48,836 bases of DNA. Origin: Escherichia phage T1. The notes beneath the pieces are model-generated. The model worked only from the letters and a program-made list of their open reading frames with translations. It was not told the DNA's origin and searched no databases. Positions 121 to 48,674 of this stretch are shown in pieces (position 1 is the stretch's first letter; every line of letters starts with the position of its first letter). The DNA is taken from sequence record NC_005833.1, one strand, 5' to 3'. The translations under genes were made by a program, and so were the position numbers.

Positions 121-207
121 CGATTACGATTACGCTTGATTGCGTGTTAATCATTGTATATGATTTGCCTAAATCGCAATCGTATACAAAATTACGCCAA
201 ATTACGC

Positions 208-290
208 CTTATAATATACATATAGATATATGTATATATATAATATATAAGTGTTTTTTTTATTTATATATATAGATACTATTATTTGTA
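208..290. repeat. alternating AT-rich (TATATA-type) tract
   Basis: ataatatacatatagatatatgtatatatataatatataagtgttttttttatttatatatatagatac; a similar tract recurs at 30001-30070. Confidence 0.6.
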
Positions 291-538: not shown

Positions 539-1114
539 ATGAGTTCTTACCAGTCAGACGCAGTACAGGCAGCAATCAAGGCAGCTTACGAGAAGGCCGG
601 AGTAACGGTTGAGCAGCGACCGGAGGCAAAAGTGACCGATGTTATCCGGGCCGCCTGCGATCAGCTTTATGGTGATGGCGAGAATACCGAGTTCACATTC
701 GACGCGAATAAGATGGCTGAGGCCGCAGCAAGAAAGTCGATGCCAGACGCTGACGAACATGATGTTGCCAAAGGCGCCGAGTCCTGGTTGCTCGGGAAGA
801 CGGATGAGATTAACGAGAAGTTTAAATCCTCATTCATCACCCCGATCGTTTCTCGACACTTCTCCAAGATCGGCAAGTCGGTCAAGGTGAGCGTGACCAT
901 GAACGATGAGAAGTTGCGAGTCGTTACTATCTCAGTGAGTGACGAAGAAGTTCCGGTGAAGAAGCGCCGCAGCCGGAAAAAAGTCAGCCTGGCTGATTGT
1001 CTGGATTCGTTTGTTCCTGATGTTGATGATCTTGAGAAAGGCGACGTTACTGTAAGCACCGTGCGCGACCTGGTTCGCCAGATGAAAGCGCATATCGAAA
1101 AATGTGGACTGTAA
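539..1114 (+). CDS. hypothetical early protein, first gene of rightward early operon
   Basis: Track ORF 449..1114; start refined to ATG 539 preceded by AAGGAG; basic KKRRSRKK patch; no recognisable domain. Confidence 0.5.
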   Translation: MSSYQSDAVQAAIKAAYEKAGVTVEQRPEAKVTDVIRAACDQLYGDGENTEFTFDANKMAEAAARKSMPDADEHDVAKGAESWLLGKTDEINEKFKSSFITPIVSRHFSKIGKSVKVSVTMNDEKLRVVTISVSDEEVPVKKRRSRKKVSLADCLDSFVPDVDDLEKGDVTVSTVRDLVRQMKAHIEKCGL

Positions 1115-1126
1115 GGAGAAGTAATT

Positions 1127-1453
1127 ATGTTTAATATCAAACCATTAACAGAAGCAGAGAAACAGGCTCAGGCCAAGCAAACCGAAAACATCCAAGTGAT
1201 CGCTGATGCGCTGATTGGTAAGAGGTCAATCAAAATAAACCTCGACACTGTTGGTCAGTCATTTTTTACTAAAGGTTTGGATAAGTACGTTATAAATGTG
1301 AAGGCGAGAGACCTGGTGGCGAGAATTCAAAAGCTAAACAATCAAAAGCTAAAGCTCATCAAGGTCGAAGGCAACATGTGCGAAATTGAGAACCTCAGCG
1401 CACCAGACCCGAATAAGTGGGAAATCACCGATGTCGAGTTTATCGTAGAATAG
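1127..1453 (+). CDS. hypothetical protein (108 aa)
   Basis: Track ORF with GGAG RBS; stop TAG lies inside conserved box at 1450. Confidence 0.5.
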   Translation: MFNIKPLTEAEKQAQAKQTENIQVIADALIGKRSIKINLDTVGQSFFTKGLDKYVINVKARDLVARIQKLNNQKLKLIKVEGNMCEIENLSAPDPNKWEITDVEFIVE

Positions 1454-1499
1454 CACTTTTTGTTAAAACCGGATCGGGGTATCTTGCTATAGTTACCCC
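1450..1499 (+). promoter_or_regulatory. conserved box-hairpin element (ATAGCACTTTTTGTTAAAAC, 22 nt, TATAGT)
   Basis: Box 1450-1469; TTGTTA 1460-1465; 22-nt spacer; TATAGT 1488-1493; inverted repeat GGGGTA 1476-1481 / TACCCC 1494-1499. Confidence 0.6.
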
Positions 1500-1531
1500 A
1501 TCAAAACGAGATACCAATCAGAGGAATCACC

Positions 1532-1762
1532 ATGTCAATCGTCAAGAACCAGCAAGCCATCGATTCAACCAATAACAACCGCTTTGCTATTTTCATCACT
1601 CGCGACAACAAGCGCTTTGCAGTAAAGGCCGTACCAGGTGGATACAAAACCTACATGGAAGATAACGGAAAGTGGGTGCGGTGCGACAACCTCGCAAACT
1701 TCTTGGTCTGGAACGCAGACCTGCAGGGATTCGATGACATCAGCACTTTAATTGAGGAGTAA
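1532..1762 (+). CDS. hypothetical protein (76 aa)
   Basis: Track ORF downstream of box-hairpin element 1450-1499; RBS GAGG. Confidence 0.5.
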   Translation: MSIVKNQQAIDSTNNNRFAIFITRDNKRFAVKAVPGGYKTYMEDNGKWVRCDNLANFLVWNADLQGFDDISTLIEE

Positions 1763-1767
1763 TAATC

Positions 1768-1995
1768 ATGCCACGTTACAGCAACCTAACTCAACTAACC
1801 CGCGTCAACGGGCACATGATCCCGGCAAAATCCACTCACTACGCAATGGGAGCAAAGCACGGATTGTATTTCAAATGGCGCGGTCAATGGAACTTCACGG
1901 TTATTCGTAATTTCTACATTAGAGTTACAGGTGATGACCCGCAATCGGTCGTAGAGAACTCAATCGGCGACAACAAGATCGAGGTGCTGAAATGA
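1768..1995 (+). CDS. hypothetical protein (75 aa)
   Basis: Track ORF, tightly packed after preceding gene. Confidence 0.5.
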   Translation: MPRYSNLTQLTRVNGHMIPAKSTHYAMGAKHGLYFKWRGQWNFTVIRNFYIRVTGDDPQSVVENSIGDNKIEVLK

Positions 1996-2102
1996 ACTTC
2001 AACATAATTGCTTTCTGGTCTGCCGTATGGTTCTTTTGCGTAGGTCATGTTGTGGTTGGAATCGTAATCATGTTGCTACTGTGTGCGGGAGCGTTCGAAT
2101 GA
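1992..2102 (+). CDS. small hydrophobic protein (36 aa, single predicted TM helix)
   Basis: Manual translation MNFNIIAFWSAVWFFCVGHVVVGIVIMLLLCAGAFE; ATG overlaps upstream stop (ATGA); below 60 aa so absent from track. Confidence 0.3.
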   Translation: MNFNIIAFWSAVWFFCVGHVVVGIVIMLLLCAGAFE

Positions 2103-2272
2103 TGCGGATTCTGATTTGCATGATGGCGGCGGTCGCCATGGCTATCCTGGTAGTGTCCGGCTGCGGCGAGGCCAGGGATAGCTGTCATGAAACCGGGAGC
2201 CAGGTTACTACTTTCGTGATGGTTGGCAACGTATTGCTACCAATAACATCAAATGAAATCACTTGCGAATAG
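2099..2272 (+). CDS. small putative lipoprotein (about 57 aa)
   Basis: Inside track ORF 2027..2272; start refined to ATG 2099 overlapping preceding stop; signal-like MMRILICMMAAVAMAILVVSGC with lipobox-like VVSGC. Confidence 0.4.
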   Translation: MMRILICMMAAVAMAILVVSGCGEARDSCHETGSQVTTFVMVGNVLLPITSNEITCE

Positions 2273-2319
2273 CACTTTTTGTTAAAACTCAACTCCGGGG
2301 TTGCGATATAGTAACCCCA
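2269..2319 (+). promoter_or_regulatory. conserved box-hairpin element
   Basis: ATAGCAC 2269-2275; TTGTTA 2279-2284; 22-nt spacer; TATAGT 2307-2312; GGGGTT / AACCCC arms. Confidence 0.6.
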
Positions 2320-2343
2320 TCGACAACGAACGAGGACGCAAAC

Positions 2344-2832
2344 ATGAAAATTAAATTACTTAGCAATGGCGGTTACAAGGGATTCACCCGCGACCTGGAA
2401 GCTGACCCTATCGTGGTTGACGCGGTTAAGTGCGACTCAAGTACTGGAGGCTACCGCGTTAAGGTTGATGACCTTGTAAAAGCTGGCGTGTACGATCTTG
2501 ATTATGGCCTGTCGGTTAGCCCGGTATTTGGCCCAGCTGACTTCAACGAGAAAGACGGAACGATGTTCTTTTTTGATTGGGAAGTGAAGGCAAACATCAA
2601 GCCGCGCAAGGTTCGTCTTCTCAGCAATGGCGGCTACCCGATGCGACCAGGTTATGAGAATCGCACGTTCCCGGTTATCGTTGACTTCATTGGGACAACT
2701 GACAACTTGGTATACGTTAGCCATGAGCAACTTAAGGCAGTTGGATTCGTTGGCGGTATGAATAAAGAAGCGCTTTGCTTCTTCCATCGATGTCCAGAGC
2801 CGATCGGTATTGAGTGCGAGTTAGTATACTAA
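2344..2832 (+). CDS. hypothetical protein with internal duplication (two LLSNGGY-containing halves)
   Basis: Track ORF 2263..2832; start refined to ATG 2344; repeated KIKLLSNGGYKGF / KVRLLSNGGYPMR segments. Confidence 0.5.
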   Translation: MKIKLLSNGGYKGFTRDLEADPIVVDAVKCDSSTGGYRVKVDDLVKAGVYDLDYGLSVSPVFGPADFNEKDGTMFFFDWEVKANIKPRKVRLLSNGGYPMRPGYENRTFPVIVDFIGTTDNLVYVSHEQLKAVGFVGGMNKEALCFFHRCPEPIGIECELVY

Positions 2833-2879
2833 GCACGAATTGTTAAAAGGGGATTTGGCCTGACTGGTATAATCCCCAC
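2829..2879 (+). promoter_or_regulatory. conserved box-hairpin element
   Basis: cTAAGCACGAATTGTTAAAAG; TTGTTA 2840-2845; 22-nt spacer; TATAAT 2868-2873 (TGG-TATAAT); GGGGATT / AATCCCC arms. Confidence 0.6.
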
Positions 2880-2903
2880 ATCAACCACTAATAGGAAAGC
2901 ATC

Positions 2904-3389
2904 ATGTTAAAATTAAAAGATATTCAGTTCCCTGTAGTATTTAACACTATTAGCTGCGGTAAAATAACCTGCCACAGCAAAGATCGCGCAACAGATTCAT
3001 CATTCAATGAGTGCCACCCGTCTATTGTTGGTAATCTTATTGAGCTTCATAACAATCACAATCCTGATAACATCCCATCTCTTCCATATTATGTTGAGGG
3101 AGTCGGGCCTGGTTGGAAGGTTGGTCGCTCCATCTTCCATGCAGCAAAGCCAGAAATCAAGCCAGCGCTACAATGCACTCAGATCGAGAACATGCCATTG
3201 AGCGCGACACTAAAAGGTGTCCAACTTGATAGCGAATCCTGGATCGAGATTACCGCCACGCCTAAAACTATTGAGGTACATGATGATGTGGTGATTCTCC
3301 TGTTGCATTACGGCAGCTTTAAGCACAAGACGGTATCAGGTGAAATCAGCATTAAGCGCGGAACTCTTGTCCGCTACGAGGTGAAATAA
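2904..3389 (+). CDS. hypothetical protein (161 aa)
   Basis: Track ORF after box-hairpin element 2829-2879. Confidence 0.5.
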   Translation: MLKLKDIQFPVVFNTISCGKITCHSKDRATDSSFNECHPSIVGNLIELHNNHNPDNIPSLPYYVEGVGPGWKVGRSIFHAAKPEIKPALQCTQIENMPLSATLKGVQLDSESWIEITATPKTIEVHDDVVILLLHYGSFKHKTVSGEISIKRGTLVRYEVK

Positions 3390-3538
3390 TGACTGCATGG
3401 GTCTTGATTATCTTGATGAGCAAAGGTCCGGATCACGTATACATGGAAAGTCAACAATCATGCAACAAGGCACGGGAAGTTATCGCAGAGAACAAGCCGT
3501 TCGGATATGAAGTAAAAACTATGTGCGTTAAACGATAG
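3389..3538 (+). CDS. small hypothetical protein (49 aa)
   Basis: Manual translation; ATG overlaps upstream TAA (TAATG); stop TAG inside box at 3535. Confidence 0.3.
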   Translation: MTAWVLIILMSKGPDHVYMESQQSCNKAREVIAENKPFGYEVKTMCVKR

Positions 3539-3586
3539 CACGAATTGCTAAACCTTCCGCAAGGCCATTTGATATAGTGGCCTTAT
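3535..3586 (+). promoter_or_regulatory. conserved box-hairpin element
   Basis: ATAGCACGAATTGCTAAAC; TTGCTA 3545-3550; 22-nt spacer; TATAGT 3573-3578; AAGGCCA / TGGCCTT arms. Confidence 0.6.
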
Positions 3587-3618
3587 TGAAGCACGACAAC
3601 CAACTGGAGGTAAAATTT

Positions 3619-3993
3619 ATGAAATTCGAATGTATCAGCGATAACACCAAAAAATTTACTGTTGGCAAAATTTACGATGTTCCGACTGAGCACGCAGAGC
3701 AAACCGTAGCTCTGACCGACGACACGGGCCGCAACCGAATTGCAACCGTAACTCACAACGGTGAAGGTCTTCGCTGGAATAGCGGCGGCACTAAGTTCGC
3801 AACGTTCGGCAAGAAGCGCAAGCGCACCTTCCGCGTCAACGGCAATGTTGCAGCTAACAAGATCCATAACGTCAAGCCGTCGGAAGTTGACCGCAAGCCA
3901 GCGCTGAAGTTTAAAGAGAAGGTGGATTTATTCAATCTTGCCGCCTCGCTTGTTCTCCTGGTCGCTGCTATTTCGCTGCTTTCCATCATGTAA
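3619..3993 (+). CDS. hypothetical protein with C-terminal transmembrane anchor
   Basis: Track ORF 3577..3993; start refined to ATG 3619 after GGAGG; C-terminal LFNLAASLVLLVAAISLLSIM hydrophobic helix. Confidence 0.45.
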   Translation: MKFECISDNTKKFTVGKIYDVPTEHAEQTVALTDDTGRNRIATVTHNGEGLRWNSGGTKFATFGKKRKRTFRVNGNVAANKIHNVKPSEVDRKPALKFKEKVDLFNLAASLVLLVAAISLLSIM

Positions 3994-4000
3994 TGCTAAT

Positions 4001-4035
4001 GGGGAATCGACTCTGAACGGTTCCCCTTTCTTTTG
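4001..4035 (+). terminator. rho-independent terminator
   Basis: GGGGAA(t)CG .. CG(g)TTCCCC stem followed by TTTCTTTTGG. Confidence 0.5.
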
Positions 4036-4141
4036 GAGAAAACACTATGCCAGACTTTTCTAACTGGAATAACGAGCCGCCATCATTTCAGGAGTTGCTA
4101 TTCTGCCTCCTGGTCCTGACATTATCTCTTAAGGGTGTTTT

Positions 4142-4360
4142 ATGGCTACTATCATGACAGTAGAAGATGCAGCACGCGATGCAGTGGAAGGAATGCGCCC
4201 AAATACCTCCAGAATAGCACACTACTACAAATCTGAGGTGTCGGCAGTGCAATTGGTCCACGAAATTTTAAGGCTCCCACAAGTCGATTCAGCGCGCGTT
4301 GTGACGTGCTTAAAAAATTATTTTTGCATCACTATTAAAACGAATAGCACGAATTGCTAA
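4142..4360 (+). CDS. hypothetical protein (72 aa); a competing 36-aa ORF at 4047..4157 has the better RBS
   Basis: Track ORF; weak RBS; overlaps small ORF 4047..4157. Confidence 0.25.
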   Translation: MATIMTVEDAARDAVEGMRPNTSRIAHYYKSEVSAVQLVHEILRLPQVDSARVVTCLKNYFCITIKTNSTNC

Positions 4361-4395
4361 AACCTATCAAGGGGAATACGCTATGATTCCCCTAC
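4344..4395 (+). promoter_or_regulatory. conserved box-hairpin element
   Basis: ATAGCACGAATTGCTAAAAC; TTGCTA 4354-4359; 22-nt spacer; TATGAT 4382-4387; AGGGGAAT / ATTCCCCT arms. Confidence 0.6.
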
Positions 4396-4417
4396 ACCAA
4401 CAAACGAGGAAGCGATC

Positions 4418-4864
4418 ATGAAACACTTAATCTGCATTGAAGCGCCTAACGATCAATACACCCTGCATGGACTTGGTGTGTTCAAAGGTCACTACATTAC
4501 CGCAGGAACTTACGATGCTCGTCGCGGCGATGGCGACCTAATGATTACGTCAAAAGAAGTAAATCCGTACATCATGCAGAATCTTGGCAATAACGAATAT
4601 ATGGCCTATGGCTGCAACGCGGTGTACAAGCACGTTAAGATCCGCAAGCGTGTTGTGCGTGCATTCAAGAAGATTGCAATTAAATACTGGAAAATGAGCA
4701 AGAAAGATGCCGGACGTTGGGCGCGCAACGTTGCAGATTCATACTTCTATCGTAACGGCGAATCCTGCTACTTCCTGATCGATGAACTTATGGAAAACTA
4801 CGGTGGCGACTTCAGCCAGGGTAGCTTTGATGACTGGGCCAACTATGAGATCAGTTGCTGGTAA
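4418..4864 (+). CDS. hypothetical protein (148 aa)
   Basis: Track ORF after box-hairpin element 4344-4395; RBS GAGGAAG; double stop TAATAG. Confidence 0.5.
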   Translation: MKHLICIEAPNDQYTLHGLGVFKGHYITAGTYDARRGDGDLMITSKEVNPYIMQNLGNNEYMAYGCNAVYKHVKIRKRVVRAFKKIAIKYWKMSKKDAGRWARNVADSYFYRNGESCYFLIDELMENYGGDFSQGSFDDWANYEISCW

Positions 4865-25042: not shown

Positions 25043-28000
25043 ATGATTCAAAAAGTGATAAGCGGATCTAAAGGTGGGTCACAGAAGCCTCATAACCCAG
25101 TTGAGATGGAGGACAATCTAATCTCAATCAACAAAATCAAGATCCTGTTAGCTGTATCTGATGGTGAAATTGACGAAACATTCAGCCTGAAGCAGTTGAT
25201 GTTTAACTCAGTCCCGGTGCAAAACGAGGATGGCTCATTTAACTTCGAGGGAGTAAAGGCAGAGTTCAGACCGGGGACGCAGACTCAGGAATATATCAAG
25301 GGAATGGAAGATAGCTCTAGTGAGGTAACTGTAAATCGTGAGGTTACTACCGATAACCCATACACAATCTCAGTAACCAACAAAACGCTGTCGGCAATCC
25401 GTATCAAAATGTTCATGCCTCGCGGCGTACGAATTGAAAGTAACGGTGATAAAAATGGCGTAAGAGTTGAGTATGAGGTGCAACAAGCTGTTGATGGCGG
25501 CTCGTTTGAGACGGTGCTCACCGATGTAATCGAAGGCAAAACAATGTCAGGTTACGATCGAAGCAGACGTGTAAACCTACCTAACTTCAACAATCAGGTG
25601 ATATTCAGAGTGGTTCGGAAAACTCCAGACTCTAACGACTCGAACGTTGTTGACGCGATTCAGGTAAAGAGCTATGCCGAGGTGATTGATGCCAAATTCC
25701 GTTATCCGCTGACTGGTCTTCTTTTTGTCGAGTTTGATTCGAAGATGTTCCCAAACCAGTTACCTACGATCTCAATTCGTAAGCGCTGGAAGATTGTAAA
25801 CGTTCCGTCAAACTATGATCCAGAATCACGAACTTATAACGGAAATTGGGATGGAACTTTTAAGAAGGCATGGACGAATAATCCGGCCTGGGTGCTTTAT
25901 GACCTGATGATTAATCAGCGTTATGGCTTGGATCAGAAAGAGCTTGGTATCGCTGTAGATAAATGGGCGCTCTACGAGGCTGCGCAATATTGCGATCAGA
26001 TGGTTCCTGATGGGAAGGGCGGGACGGAACCTCGATACCTTTGCGACGTGATAATCCAGTCTCAGACTGACGCTTACAAGGTTATCCGAGATATTTGCTC
26101 AATCTTTCGTGGTATGAGCTTTTGGAATGGTGAGAGCATTTCGGTAATCATCGACAGGCCGCGTGAACCTGCGTACATCTTCACTAACGACAACGTTGTT
26201 AATGGTGACTTCTCCTACACGTTCGCAAGCGAAAAGAGCATGTACACGACGTGTAATGTGATGTTTGATGATGAACAAAACATGTATCAGCAGGACGTTG
26301 AGCCAGTATTCGATCGTGAGGCTACTCTACGGTTTGGGAACAACGTTACGAGCATTACAGCGATCGGTTGCACACGTCGAAGCGAGGCCAACCGACGCGG
26401 GAGATGGATTCTGAAAACTAACCTCCGCAGCACTACGGTAAACTTCGCTACCGGGCTTGAGGGCATGATCCCGACAATCGGAGATGTTGTGGCAATAGCT
26501 GATAACTTCTGGTCAAGTAACTTGACAATGAACCTGTCAGGGCGTTTGCTCGAAGTGTCTGGAAGTCAGATTTTCTTGCCGTTCCGGGTGGATGCACGCG
26601 CTGGTGACTTTATTATCGTAAATAAGCCAGATGGCAAGCCTGTGAAGCGCACAATCTCAAGTGTTAGTGCGGATGGTAAGACTATAGAGGTTAACATTGG
26701 CTTTGGCTTTCCTGTGAAGCCTAACACGGTATTCGCTATCGACCGCACCGACATTGCGTTACAGCAGTACGTCGTGACAAAAATCGATAAGGGCGATGAT
26801 GATGAGGAATTTACCTACAAAATAACGGCGGTGGAGTACGATCCTAACAAGTATGATGAGATTGATTACGGAGTTAACATCGACGACCGACCGACGAGCA
26901 TCGTTGAACCAGATCAGATCCCTAGACCGAAAAATGTGCAAGTATCCTCAGAGTCGAGAATCGTCCAGGGGATGAGCGTAGAAACGATGATTGTTAGCTG
27001 GGATAAAGTTCCGTACGCTGTTTTCTATGACGTCCAGTGGCGAAAGGATAACGGCAACTGGCAAAATGTACCGCAGACAGCAAACAAAGAGGTATACGTT
27101 GAAGGTATTTACGCTGGCAACTATCAGGTTCGCGTTCGCTCAGTCGCTGGTTCGGGCACGACTTCAGGCTGGTCAAATATCGTCGCGGCAACGTTGACGG
27201 GTAAACAGGGTGAACCGGGCCGACCGATTAACCTCACAGCTACGGATGATGTTGTTTTTGGTATCCGTACAAAATGGGGGTTCTCTGATGGTTCTGGAGA
27301 TACAGCCTATACAGAGTTGCAACAGTCACCGGATGGAACAGTGGATAACGCAAGTTTGCTTTCTTTGATTCCGTATCCGCAGCATGAGTATTATCACTCA
27401 CCAATGCCTGGAGGGAATATTGTTTGGTATCGGGTAAGGACGGTTGACAGGATCGGTAACGTGTCTCAGTGGACTGATTTTGTCAGAGGTATGGCATCAA
27501 CAAACGTTGACGATATCATTGGGGAGATTTCTGTTGATATCGAAAACTCACCTGGTTACGAGTGGCTTGTTGATAACGCAACAGACAACGCGGCGCAGAA
27601 CTCAGCTAACGCAGAGGCAGCAATAGAAAACGCGCTCGCCAATGACAAAGACGCGATCTACATGAAGAAGGAGAACGGAAAACGAAAAGCTGAGTACACG
27701 AAATCACTGAAACTTATTGCTGATGAGACGCAGGCACGAGTGACGGCGATCGAGCAATTGAAGGCAAGTTTTGGCGATCAGATTAGCGCTAGCAACAGCG
27801 AGCTGCGTGAGGTTATCGCAACCGAGACTGAAGCACTATCGCGTGAGATTGACCAGCTTAAGGCTCAGATTGGTGACGATATTCAGGCAAGTCTGACTGA
27901 TATTCGGGAGGTTATCGCAACCGAGACTGAAGCACTATCGCGTGAGATTGACCAGCTTAAGGCTCAGATTGGTGACGATATTCAGGCAAGTCTGACTGAT

Positions 28001-28561
28001 ATTCGGGAGGCTATCGCGAACGAGACTGAGGCTAGAACGCAAGCTGACTTAACACTTAGCGCGCGGCTTGGAAATAACGAGGCGGCACTTGCTCAAAAAC
28101 TAGACTCGTGGAGTAACGCGGATTCTACTGGTGCAATGTACGGTGTCAAGTTGGGTCTGAAATACAACGGCCAGGAATACAGTGCAGGCATGGCTATGTC
28201 TCTAGTTGGTTCCGGAGCTGCGGTTAAGGCGCAGATTTTGTTTGAGGCGTCACGATTTGCCATCATGACTGGAATGAATGGTCAGACTCAGTACCCCTTC
28301 GTTGTTGAGAATGGTCAGGTTATTTTAAGTAGCGCGATTATCAAGAACGGATTCATCACCAACGCAATGATTGGAAACTTCATCCAGTCGAATAACTATG
28401 TATTTAACCAGTCCGGATGGAGGCTTGACAAGGGTGGAACATTCGAAAATTACGGAAGTGACGGTGAGGGTGCAATGAAGCAAACTAATACCACAATATC
28501 TGTTAGGGATGCGAGTGGTCGCCTGAGGGTTCAGATTGGCAGGTTGACTGGCTCATGGTAA
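25043..28561 (+). CDS. tail tip / host specificity protein (lambda J-like central fibre)
   Basis: 1172-aa ORF following M/L/K/I-like genes; contains a 2 x 99 bp perfect in-frame tandem repeat. Confidence 0.8.
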   Translation: MIQKVISGSKGGSQKPHNPVEMEDNLISINKIKILLAVSDGEIDETFSLKQLMFNSVPVQNEDGSFNFEGVKAEFRPGTQTQEYIKGMEDSSSEVTVNREVTTDNPYTISVTNKTLSAIRIKMFMPRGVRIESNGDKNGVRVEYEVQQAVDGGSFETVLTDVIEGKTMSGYDRSRRVNLPNFNNQVIFRVVRKTPDSNDSNVVDAIQVKSYAEVIDAKFRYPLTGLLFVEFDSKMFPNQLPTISIRKRWKIVNVPSNYDPESRTYNGNWDGTFKKAWTNNPAWVLYDLMINQRYGLDQKELGIAVDKWALYEAAQYCDQMVPDGKGGTEPRYLCDVIIQSQTDAYKVIRDICSIFRGMSFWNGESISVIIDRPREPAYIFTNDNVVNGDFSYTFASEKSMYTTCNVMFDDEQNMYQQDVEPVFDREATLRFGNNVTSITAIGCTRRSEANRRGRWILKTNLRSTTVNFATGLEGMIPTIGDVVAIADNFWSSNLTMNLSGRLLEVSGSQIFLPFRVDARAGDFIIVNKPDGKPVKRTISSVSADGKTIEVNIGFGFPVKPNTVFAIDRTDIALQQYVVTKIDKGDDDEEFTYKITAVEYDPNKYDEIDYGVNIDDRPTSIVEPDQIPRPKNVQVSSESRIVQGMSVETMIVSWDKVPYAVFYDVQWRKDNGNWQNVPQTANKEVYVEGIYAGNYQVRVRSVAGSGTTSGWSNIVAATLTGKQGEPGRPINLTATDDVVFGIRTKWGFSDGSGDTAYTELQQSPDGTVDNASLLSLIPYPQHEYYHSPMPGGNIVWYRVRTVDRIGNVSQWTDFVRGMASTNVDDIIGEISVDIENSPGYEWLVDNATDNAAQNSANAEAAIENALANDKDAIYMKKENGKRKAEYTKSLKLIADETQARVTAIEQLKASFGDQISASNSELREVIATETEALSREIDQLKAQIGDDIQASLTDIREVIATETEALSREIDQLKAQIGDDIQASLTDIREAIANETEARTQADLTLSARLGNNEAALAQKLDSWSNADSTGAMYGVKLGLKYNGQEYSAGMAMSLVGSGAAVKAQILFEASRFAIMTGMNGQTQYPFVVENGQVILSSAIIKNGFITNAMIGNFIQSNNYVFNQSGWRLDKGGTFENYGSDGEGAMKQTNTTISVRDASGRLRVQIGRLTGSW
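27811..28008 (+). repeat. perfect in-frame tandem duplication, 2 x 99 bp, inside J-like gene
   Basis: 27811-27909 and 27910-28008 read identically; encodes a 33-aa unit twice, followed by a diverged third unit. Confidence 0.8.
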
Positions 28562-28566
28562 TATCA

Positions 28567-28595
28567 AGGGCATCGAGAGATGCCCTTTTCTTTTG
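28567..28595 (+). terminator. rho-independent terminator after J-like gene
   Basis: AGGGCATC gaga GATGCCCT followed by TTTCTTTT. Confidence 0.6.
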
Positions 28596-28606
28596 GAGGA
28601 TTTATT

Positions 28607-28912
28607 ATGGCGTACGGTATATCAACTTGGGACGCAAATGGCGTTTATAATAACTATGGAATTAAGCCTATTACGGTTGTTGGTTGGAACTTTTTGTCAG
28701 CAGGCCAGAATTCAGCATCGTTCAGCTATCAAGTGCCTCCTGGTATGCATGTGAACTACGTTATAAGCCTTGACGATGGCGCCATTAGTGGGCCTGGCAG
28801 GAAAATTATTGCTAGCGGTAATACGATAACAGTAACGCCAACAAACTCACCTGGGCCAAACGTGTACCCATCATCAAACTGTTACTTAATAGCATATCTG
28901 GAGAATGATTAA
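28607..28912 (+). CDS. hypothetical protein, paralog of next gene
   Basis: Track ORF 28580..28912; start refined to ATG 28607 after GGAGGA; MAYGISTWDANG resembles MSYGAFIDVNGN of next ORF. Confidence 0.4.
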   Translation: MAYGISTWDANGVYNNYGIKPITVVGWNFLSAGQNSASFSYQVPPGMHVNYVISLDDGAISGPGRKIIASGNTITVTPTNSPGPNVYPSSNCYLIAYLEND

Positions 28913-29601
28913 TGTCATACGGTGCTTTTATAGATGTAAACGGAAACCCATTCATAACCCCGTTATCCACGCCATTCGCTTTATATGCGAGAGGGGAAAT
29001 TCAATCAGTAAATGTTAGTGGTTCACAGGTTGCGGAGAGATACGTTCGGATACCTACAGGTGTTCCGGTTATAGCTTTTTGCAAAACAACAAACACGCAG
29101 CAGGGGACCGCGCTTTCAGCCTTTACTTTCAGAAGCGGACCCAATGTTGGAACTGTTTATATAAGGGGGACAAATCCAGCAAACCAATCATACACGCTAA
29201 CATACTACATATTTGCCATATTTGAGCAGTCACTACCGAGATGGGGTATGGCAATATGGGATGCGTCAGGAAAGCTAGTGCTGACAAATGAGACAAAAGT
29301 CCTTAGTGATTTGGTTACAATCGGCACTCCTGGATACGCTGGCGGTGGATTAAACATAGACACAACACTCAGCGGAAGCTACGCGGTTGTTCCAACTATA
29401 CTTGGCAACTATCAAGTTGTTATTGGAAGGTTGCCAACTGGGCAACCAATAATAGGAAACTCAACAGCAGGCAGTTCATGCAGGTACAACGGGAGCACAA
29501 CGAGAATAAATGCAGCAGCAACCACTGCGGCAGGTCAGATAATGAACACAACGAATAATGGAAATATTATAACAGCAATCAAAACGGCAGCATACGACTA
29601 A
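28912..29601 (+). CDS. hypothetical protein, possible tail accessory
   Basis: 229-aa ORF, ATGA overlap; ATA/AGA-rich codon usage; followed by bidirectional terminator. Confidence 0.4.
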   Translation: MSYGAFIDVNGNPFITPLSTPFALYARGEIQSVNVSGSQVAERYVRIPTGVPVIAFCKTTNTQQGTALSAFTFRSGPNVGTVYIRGTNPANQSYTLTYYIFAIFEQSLPRWGMAIWDASGKLVLTNETKVLSDLVTIGTPGYAGGGLNIDTTLSGSYAVVPTILGNYQVVIGRLPTGQPIIGNSTAGSSCRYNGSTTRINAAATTAAGQIMNTTNNGNIITAIKTAAYD

Positions 29602-29624
29602 GCCCCTTGCGGGGCTTTTATTTT
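29601..29624. terminator. bidirectional terminator between convergent genes
   Basis: AGCCCC ttgc GGGGCT flanked by T-run (plus) and A-run (minus). Confidence 0.6.
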
Positions 29625-29850
29625 ATATCGAGCAATCGTGAGATTTGAAGTTTTTCTCTGATACATAGTTGAAGGAGAATGGGTATCCAGCACGCAATAC
29701 CATCTCCTTTCCGCGCATCTTAGATCCAAAAACGTAAACCGAGTACTCCGCGCCGCCTGATTCATAAATTGCCGTGCAAGTGCGCTCAGGCATCGATGAG
29801 CAACCAGTCAGGATGAATGCCGCAGCGATAATGGTGATTAACTTTTTCAT
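29623..29850 (-). CDS. small outer-membrane-type lipoprotein (Cor/Llp-like superinfection exclusion candidate)
   Basis: 75 aa; signal peptide with lipobox LTGC (MKKLITIIAAAFILTGCSS); lone reverse-strand gene after tail module. Confidence 0.5.
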   Translation of the reverse strand: MKKLITIIAAAFILTGCSSMPERTCTAIYESGGAEYSVYVFGSKMRGKEMVLRAGYPFSFNYVSEKNFKSHDCSI

Positions 29851-32210: not shown

Positions 32211-32633
32211 ATGCATATTATCACTGGCGAGATCCGCAAAGAACCAAAGATTCTTGAACGTAACGGCGGCAATACTTATATTATCGAACTGGCAGAAAGC
32301 TATAAGCCTCGTGATGGCGATCGCGAATACACCAACTACACGTTCTTTTTTAGCGACGGTGGGAAGCCAGGCCTTGCTGACTGGTATCGTGAAGCGTTCC
32401 AAGTTGGTCGAGTTATCTCAGTATCGTGCGAGACGTTGAAGATCTCATCACGCGAACACAACGGAATGATTTACAATTCATTGCAGGCGGCTGACTTCCC
32501 TAAACTAGTATTTAGTCAACGAGGTCAAAGCAACCAGCAACAACGAGCGCCTCAGCAACAACAGCGTTCTCAGCAGCAATCACAACCACAACCAAATCAA
32601 CAATCAACATTTGACGACGATATTCCATTCTAA
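32211..32633 (+). CDS. ssb: single-stranded DNA-binding protein
   Basis: 140 aa; Gln-rich linker and C-terminal acidic tip ..FDDDIPF characteristic of bacterial-type SSB. Confidence 0.8.
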   Translation: MHIITGEIRKEPKILERNGGNTYIIELAESYKPRDGDREYTNYTFFFSDGGKPGLADWYREAFQVGRVISVSCETLKISSREHNGMIYNSLQAADFPKLVFSQRGQSNQQQRAPQQQQRSQQQSQPQPNQQSTFDDDIPF

Positions 32634-48328: not shown

Positions 48329-48674
48329 GATCCGCTACGAATGAGTTAACGGTGATTGAATAGTCAGCCACGAAGCAAGGAGCAACACTGCCTGGCTCAG
48401 TGCGCATGAATGGTTTATTGAACTGAGTGATTACCTCGCCAGTATCGTTATCAATTAAGCGAGACGCGCCTAAGCGGTCCACCACGCGCGTTACGCGGTC
48501 CACGCACTCCATTACATCACTTACGTCATAATAGGCGGTTAGAGCGGCTATCATTGCCTTCTCTTGCTTGTTGTGAATCTTACGCGCAATGTTCTCTATC
48601 GCAACGTGCACTTTCTCGTCAGTCTGGATTACCGAGCTGGCTGAGAAGTCCAGATCTGTGAACTGCTTAAACAT
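48303..48674 (-). CDS. hypothetical protein (123 aa), first gene of leftward operon
   Basis: Track reverse ORF; GAGGAAAG RBS; preceded by box element 48690-48751. Confidence 0.45.
   Translation of the reverse strand: MFKQFTDLDFSASSVIQTDEKVHVAIENIARKIHNKQEKAMIAALTAYYDVSDVMECVDRVTRVVDRLGASRLIDNDTGEVITQFNKPFMRTEPGSVAPCFVADYSITVNSFVADRVKEALYE

Follow-up and report, generated by a model that had tools for sequence, protein, structure and literature searches.

A perfect in-frame repeat in the central tail fiber gene

Does the perfect tandem repeat in the central tail fiber gene of Escherichia phage T1 reflect a genuine change in the tail, and, if so, how did it arise and what would it do to the fiber? 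T1, a classic among model phages, is also notorious for contaminating laboratories. We addressed this question in sequence record NC_005833.1, a stretch of 48,836 nucleotides (nt) that we refer to as the window. The repeat lies in open reading frame (ORF) 25043-28561 of the ORF list, on the plus strand, which encodes the 1172-residue J-like central tail fiber of coliphage T1, gp33. Positions 27811-27909 and 27910-28008 are identical at 99 of 99 bases and encode the same 33 residues twice in frame, just as a first reading of the letters alone (hereafter the original prediction) had it. Because the exact period-99 match extends over 103 nt (27809-27911 against the sequence 99 bases further on), the unit boundary is ambiguous by the four nucleotides GAGG; we use a codon-aligned register throughout, and call the two copies U1 and U2 (Table 1). 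The diverged unit that was earlier seen after the copies is present as well (U3), and a closer diverged unit, overlooked at the time, precedes them (U0), giving the array order U0-U1-U2-U3. We consider it highly probable that the middle module, U1, of a U0-(U1)n-U3 shaft built on 11-residue (hendecad) repeats was doubled by recombination or replication slippage, with its register kept and its length increased by about 49 Å, and that the lengthened shaft is one predicted to refold.

The repeat stands out from the rest of the window. Tandem Repeats Finder reports it at 27809-28029 with a period of 99, 2.2 copies, and a score of 421, and all remaining repeats found by the program in the window have periods of at most 21. 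The sequence pattern of the U1-to-U2 junction occurs once in the window and in none of 100 shuffles. No second ORF of at least 60 amino acids (aa) across 27811-28008 is found on either strand in the ORF list.

The gene matches PHROG 31, "central tail fiber J" (E = 0), and contains the Pfam domains listed in Table 1, which bears out its earlier designation as J-like. PDB 9l9p chain S, the T1 "putative tail fiber protein" gp33, is 100% identical to the gp33 of the window, and lambda J (PDB 8iyk) aligns to T1 gp33 with E = 9e-116. With N-terminal hub domains and a C-terminal fiber domain both present, gp33 is by homology a central tail fiber of the lambda J type. In the cryo-electron microscopy (cryo-EM) study of T1, gp33 is a trimer that closes the tail cone; residues 13-820 were modelled, and the remainder, residues 821-1172, is a flexible extension at the distal end that AlphaFold3 predicts to protrude by about 370 Å and whose repeats go unmentioned in the paper (PMC11945409). 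PMC10373560 and PMC12685063 contain no information on the shaft.

The duplication is specific to the T1 lineage

A single unit miscounted during assembly would account for the repeat trivially, and perfect tandem repeats are a classic cause of copy-number error in short-read assembly. The 48,836-bp T1 reference was presumably Sanger-sequenced, with reads long enough for 198 nt. Positions 27400-28400 align in one piece and at 99.9% to a second T1 record, MN153797.1 (DSMZ-host stock, 48822 bp). Across the 9001 positions around the repeat, this record and the window disagree at 14, including four within J. MN153797.1 carries both copies, identical to each other, as in the window. Because an independent T1 stock has the same structure, we reject an assembly artefact, which the original prediction had named as the outcome that would overturn it; the U1-to-U2 junction is also found in the Shigella phage vB_SsoS_008, and a truly single-copy T1 is extremely improbable.

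The same 27400-28400 interval matches about 67 other Tunavirus phages of Escherichia and Shigella at 85-92% identity. For a survey of copy number, we ran blastn with 27650-28170 and kept the phage records with full coverage of the query, of which there are 58. In 56 of these the match is 422 nt long (521 minus 99), which is a single copy, and just two match all 521 nt in one piece: T1-DSM (MN153797) and vB_SsoS_008. In an alignment with six relatives (alignment A1), the gap corresponds to exactly one whole unit. Both T1 copies share T1-specific bases, and the nearest single-copy allele, that of Sfin-3, has five differences. We also searched for the junction with a degenerate pattern specific to the joining of U1 to U1 (D-I-R-E-V-I-A-T-E-T). 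In IMG/VR this two-copy junction occurs in one contig, the vB_SsoS_008 genome itself, and the ordinary U1-to-U3 junction in 13 contigs; the two-copy junction was found in none of the metagenome contigs (241 million metagenome records searched) and in no genome contigs.

The duplication is real, specific to the T1 lineage, and young relative to the divergence of Tunavirus, and the U1-to-U2 junction separates T1 from almost all T1-like phages. The original prediction had read the perfect identity as a sign of recent duplication or of ongoing expansion and contraction. The first part holds relative to Tunavirus divergence, given the T1-specific bases in both copies and the single-copy state of the 56 relatives, but the event need not be very recent, and the array of vB_SsoS_008 means that it is not found in T1 only. 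The second part finds no support: there is no copy-number polymorphism between the T1 records, each of which has exactly two copies, although two records make this a weak test.

A mosaic two-copy array in Shigella phage vB_SsoS_008

The second two-copy phage raises the question of whether the array is older than T1. vB_SsoS_008 (MK335533.1) is a Shigella phage isolated in China, and its two copies differ from each other at 14 of 99 nt. This is what would be expected if a two-copy array predated the T1 lineage, with the T1 copies homogenized by gene conversion and vB_SsoS_008 preserving the diverged state, and the exonuclease and recombinase encoded by T1 directly downstream would favor conversion between 99-nt repeats. 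The individual copies tell a different story. The single units of JMPW1, LHE71, and LeonhardEuler differ from copy 1 by 9 nt. Copy 2 is separated from the T1 unit by 2 nt in the register of the original prediction and from Sfin-3 by 4 nt, and inside a 104-nt identical tract it is free of differences from T1. Each copy is therefore closer to some single-copy allele than to its neighbor. The T1-identical tract (window 27899-28002) is an isolated patch with flanks at 85-87% identity, and it contains T1's own junction, ATTCGG/GAGGTT. Because of this patch, and because each copy is nearer to single-copy alleles, the vB_SsoS_008 array reads as a mosaic import from a T1-like two-copy allele, rather than an old shared duplication. 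Together with the 56 of 58 relatives that are single-copy, these observations make an ancestral array homogenized in T1 quite unlikely.

The J gene of vB_SsoS_008 (locus 984-4472) is annotated as eight "tail fiber protein" fragments, and relative to T1 has indels of 1, 2, 5, 13, 19, and 58 nt. A gene broken up in this way points to errors in sequencing or assembly, or else to degradation of the gene, and the record may itself be a chimeric assembly or contain T1 contamination. Because of the fragmented gene and its indels, vB_SsoS_008 is weaker evidence for a natural two-copy allele.

The duplicated module is part of a hendecad helical shaft

Arranging aa 857-1021 in rows of 11 puts isoleucine at position 3 in nearly all rows, with hydrophobic residues at positions 6-7 and 10. 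For aa 890-1021, the spectrum of hydrophobic power has its peak at 3.66-3.68 residues, with a power of 4.42 at 11/3 compared with 0.09 at 3.5, and the power at 11/3 was reached by none of 5000 shuffles. An AlphaFold2 (AF2) model of gp33, a monomer built from a 50-sequence alignment with a mean predicted local distance difference test score (pLDDT) of 69.5, has helices at aa 885-975 and 981-1009, with a break at IGDDI (aa 976-980), and beta strands from aa 1014, the first strands of the Phage_Tail_Tip domain directly adjoining the shaft.

The shaft segment is a hendecad-based helical bundle, as both the 11/3 periodicity and the AF2 helices indicate, which agrees with the helical segment originally proposed, and the 33-residue unit is exactly three hendecads, or nine turns. 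Its geometry would be that of a trimeric coiled coil. Because the inserted residues make up three whole hendecads, the register of the hydrophobic core would be unchanged; the azimuth of the distal domain would be kept as well, and at about 1.5 Å per residue the extra unit would add about 49 Å (roughly 5 nm). The tuning of fiber length that was originally suggested would follow from this geometry.

Module number varies among J homologues

Is the doubling in T1 unique, or one of a series? We collected T1-like J homologues from a collection of 5.8 billion proteins; the matches are mostly fragments of at most 600 aa, and none is a full-length Tunavirus J. Shaft length was measured between the conserved anchors NGKRKAE and KLDSW. 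The anchors are 80 aa apart in seven clusters, which have no U1 module, 113 aa apart in four clusters, which have one, and 146 aa apart in one cluster (vB_SsoS_008) and likewise in T1 itself. When aligned, the 80, 113, and 146 aa forms differ by exact 33-aa indels at one place, and the array can therefore be written as U0-(U1)n-U3, where n is 0, 1, or 2. From these comparisons, the T1 duplication appears to be the latest instance of a recurrent change in module number, and the module a probable evolutionary length dial. Two other lengths fall off the 80 + 33n series. One, of 124 aa (two clusters, P0005/P0014), equals 113 plus 11, or one hendecad; the other, of 164 aa (two clusters, P0004/P0013), may match a 40-residue insert reported for phage TLS.

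The J proteins of other Tunavirus phages (Shfl1, Sfin-3, JMPW1, LeonhardEuler, and others) share with T1 a nucleotide identity of 85-92% in this region, the U0, U1, and U3 modules, and the flanking domains, but carry a single U1 module (113 aa from anchor to anchor) where T1 carries two (146 aa). More generally, duplications of coiled-coil fiber modules, through unequal crossing-over or slippage between repeat units, resemble that of T1: they run head-to-tail, preserve the reading frame, show microhomology where the copies join, and add a whole number of structural repeats. The T1 case is one more instance of this known kind, and does not differ in kind from other duplications of shaft modules.

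The tolerance of related phages for 0, 1, or 2 copies of the module could also mean that its number matters little. The second copy might be a neutral or laboratory-acquired polymorphism in a permissive coiled coil, fixed by drift or bottlenecks over decades of propagation. The cryo-EM study calls its T1 laboratory-adapted and fiberless (PMC11945409), and the absence of the two-copy junction from the 241 million metagenome records and from genome contigs fits this view. On the other hand, both T1 stocks, 14 of 9001 sites apart, keep two copies, although perfect 99-nt repeats would be expected to be prone to deletion, and a T1-type junction patch occurs in a Shigella phage from China (subject to the possibility of T1 contamination). 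We regard a neutral origin as a serious possibility, though one that we would bet against. If the extra module indeed has no effect, the duplication would serve as a neutral, diagnostic marker of the T1 lineage.

Homology of the shaft to the central-fiber coiled coil of F-type pyocins

What might a longer shaft do? F-type pyocins are related killing particles, and the homology between T1 gp33 and the tail fiber of one of them, the F2 pyocin (PyoF10/PA0641, PDB 25vf; E = 2.4e-222), extends along the full length of gp33. T1 aa 920-1142 align to F2 residues 974-1194 (E = 6e-24), and the pyocin shows the same periodicity of about 33 aa. The doubled module of T1 thus sits in a segment homologous to the element by which F-type pyocins switch fold to puncture the membrane; the homology that we computed is to the F2 fiber, and the switch itself was observed in F7. 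In the F7 pyocin central fiber, a 163-residue trimeric coiled coil is rebuilt as a triangular beta-prism on contact with the cell, and the change of fold drives out the tape measure protein (He et al., bioRxiv, PMC12874032). The strands of the prism bear the motif SxSxxMxxLxS, with small residues at the prism corners, and placing glutamine at the small corner residues abolishes killing while assembly is unaffected (PMC12874032). A similar switch was predicted for 21 of 24 siphophage central fibers. A switch is also predicted for the T1 relative Shfl1, in which a 33-residue helical region would stay inserted in the prism; lambda and T5 are stated to lack the large fold switch (He et al., PMC12874032).

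The same motif is enriched in T1. Using residue classes that are our own rendering of the paper's description, we found that T1 aa 890-1024 contain 12 matches to SxSxxMxxLxS, in either orientation, where shuffles average 1.8; none of 5000 shuffles reached 12. The matches fall two per 33-aa unit, and with one copy removed there are 8 matches, against 1.3 in shuffles.

The shafts of the pyocin central fiber proteins (F2, PDB 25vf; F7) are like that of T1 in being long trimeric alpha-helical shafts (with the trimer presumed for T1) between FNIII domains and a C-terminal beta-prism domain, and T1 and the pyocins also share the periodicity of about 33 aa, the SxSxxMxxLxS motif, and separate tip proteins encoded downstream. 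They differ in that T1 has strict 11/3 periodicity where one pyocin study describes heptads with a stutter, and in that T1 has a perfect duplication, none being described for pyocins. Conversely, the fold switch and the docking of side fibers on the shaft have been seen in pyocins, whereas for T1 both are hypothetical. Lambda gpJ (PDB 8iyk, 8xcj) shares the tail-tip architecture and N-terminal domains of T1 gp33, and its central straight fiber domain aligns with T1 aa 996-1102, but it is without the long U0-U1-U2 helical shaft and has a receptor-binding domain of its own.

From the homology to the pyocin shaft and the presence of the motif in the T1 segment, the duplicated segment is plausibly a metastable store of energy as well as a spacer. 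An extra module might then alter how the envelope is breached, beyond its effect on the reach of the tip: a longer metastable coiled coil would convert to a beta-prism with more stored energy, or to a prism taller by one beta-hairpin per chain, or else a second Gly-Asp-Asp kink would dock accessory fibers. We put this forward tentatively, as a rather improbable extension of the argument. If it were true, the natural series n = 0, 1, 2 would act as a dial built into the fold-switch machinery of a genetically tractable model phage.

A glycine motif recurs in each module

At one and the same offset in each 33-aa module, a glycine is followed by a pair of acidic or amide residues (Table 1), and the helix break in the AF2 monomer (aa 976-980) falls on one of these motifs, IGDDI. 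Could the duplication matter mainly by doubling a docking or hinge motif (QIGDDI, with SFGDQI and RLGNNE in the diverged modules)? F-type pyocins have their side fibers attached at a kink of the homologous shaft that is rich in Gly and Asp. In the F2 pyocin, a negatively charged kink at G955 docks three side-fiber trimers (PMC13455828), and in F7 the residues Asp950, 951, 953, 954, and 961 bind side fibers (PMC12874032). That the T1 helix breaks exactly at IGDDI in the AF2 model fits such a role, although little weight can be placed on such a break in a monomer. Against it, the lateral fiber of T1 has no detectable similarity to pyocin side fibers, its N-terminus resembles depolymerase-type anchors, and the imaged T1 particles were without lateral fibers (PMC11945409). 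We seriously doubt that docking is the main consequence of the duplication. The lateral fiber appears mosaic in its structural matches: its first 163 aa look like the anchor domain of Klebsiella phage depolymerases (PDB 7vyv), and its last 150 aa like a fiber tip in PDB 7z47.

Origin and consequences of the second copy

How was U1 doubled? All three module junctions start with GAGG. U1 and U3 share 22 of their first 26 nt, but only 14 of the 30 nt upstream. Because of this shared GAGG and the 22/26 homeology, the duplication most likely originated by unequal homologous recombination or replication slippage between module starts, with the crossover in GAGG. The genes for the T1 exonuclease, recombinase, and single-stranded DNA binding protein (SSB) lie immediately downstream, and their products could promote such events.

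The proposed sequence of events is as follows. The near-identical starts of adjacent modules would mispair or recombine unequally, with a crossover within the shared GAGG, and U1 would thereby be doubled in frame in the T1 lineage (n = 2). As the 33 residues make up three hendecads and nine helical turns, the register of the hydrophobic core and the azimuth of the distal domain would be kept. The added length would be roughly a quarter of the repeat region, and the receptor-binding tip would be held about 5 nm further from the tail cone. Finally, the lengthened shaft would refold, turning its coiled coil into a beta-prism, at envelope penetration, as predicted by homology to F-type pyocins.

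Several points weigh against this account. As the two-copy state is also found in vB_SsoS_008, gene conversion, not recency, could contribute to the identity of the T1 copies. The absence of differences in 198 nt bounds the age of the duplication loosely, because the two T1 stocks themselves differ by just 0.16%. The gp33 shaft lies outside the experimentally resolved structure (PMC11945409), and the AF2 model, besides being a monomer with a break at aa 976-980, is of moderate confidence (mean pLDDT 69.5). One F-pyocin paper gives heptads with stutters, not hendecads, and the geometry may differ in detail. Finally, any phenotypic effect of the extra module, and with it any difference between one-copy and two-copy fibers, is conjectural.

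The doubling of U1 by recombination or slippage remains our preferred account. As a module-number change in a repetitive fiber, the event is ordinary in kind; its context makes it moderately interesting, since it combines a model phage, a clean 0/1/2 series, and homology to a fold switch. A 0-, 1-, and 2-copy series in whole three-hendecad modules offers a testable handle on how shaft length may affect adsorption, receptor reach through lipopolysaccharide, and the proposed switch.

Neighboring genes and other repeats

The original prediction had called J a host-specificity gene, which overstates its role. In the Drexlerviridae, the loci to which receptor specificity has been mapped lie directly downstream of the J homologue and are accompanied by a gene for superinfection exclusion (PMC8594841), and because specificity is assigned to these separate downstream proteins, J is best described as a central fiber scaffold rather than a specificity determinant. 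In T1, two ORFs follow J (28580-29601), with matches to PHROG 557, "outer membrane protein," and PHROG 425, "membrane associated protein." Two small ORFs, then cor on the opposite strand, is the arrangement proposed for the receptor-binding and exclusion locus of the Drexlerviridae. Five of the 14 differences between the T1 records fall in 28796-29551.

Table 1. Features of gp33, its shaft modules, and nearby genes (positions are those of the window; aa, residues of gp33)
Feature	Position	Strand	Residues	Remarks
FNIII-A_GpJ (PF24801)			aa 92-217	Pfam, E = 2e-38
Phage-tail_3 (PF13550)			aa 340-488	Pfam, E = 3e-24
Hendecad (11/3) alpha-helical shaft	27611-28105	+	~aa 857-1021	Between FNIII domains and C-terminal beta domain
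U0, older diverged 33-aa module	27710-27808	+		KLIADETQARVTAIEQLKASFGDQISASNSELR; vs U1, 16/33 aa and 53/99 nt
SFGDQ	27773-27787			Gly motif
U1, first copy of duplicated module	27809-27907	+	aa 923-955	Codon-aligned; encodes EVIATETEALSREIDQLKAQIGDDIQASLTDIR
QIGDD	27872-27886 and 27971-27985			Gly motif
U1-to-U2 novel junction	27899-27927	+		GATATTCGG / GAGGTTATCGC...; diagnostic of two-copy allele
U2, second copy, identical to U1	27908-28006	+	aa 956-988	Encodes EVIATETEALSREIDQLKAQIGDDIQASLTDIR
U3, diverged module	28007-28105	+		EAIANETEARTQADLTLSARLGNNEAALAQKLD; vs U1, 11/33 aa and 48/99 nt
RLGNN	28070-28084			Gly motif
Phage_Tail_Tip/DUF1983 (PF09327), C-terminal beta domain	28088-28495	+	aa 1016-1151	Pfam, E = 2e-48
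110-aa ORF	28580-28912	+		Downstream of J; candidate receptor-binding locus
229-aa ORF	28912-29601	+		Downstream of J; candidate receptor-binding locus
cor superinfection exclusion gene	29623-29850	-		PHROG 1119, E = 3e-30; annotated cor in MN153797
Lateral tail fiber gene, 728 aa	32695-34881	-		Mosaic fiber

Shorter repeats occur elsewhere in the window. An 18-nt tandem repeat, CAGCAACAACAGCGTCCT, is present in 2.5 copies with 85% matches at 32535-32579, inside ORF 32211-32633, the counterpart of the SSB gene annotated in MN153797. Short tandem repeats are also found at both ends of the window (189-249, 398-423, and 48464-48515), comprising a 10-nt unit in 2 copies, a TA run, a 9-nt unit in 2.9 copies, and a 21-nt unit in 2 copies; these end-clustered repeats may be related to the T1 genome ends or to the packaging region.

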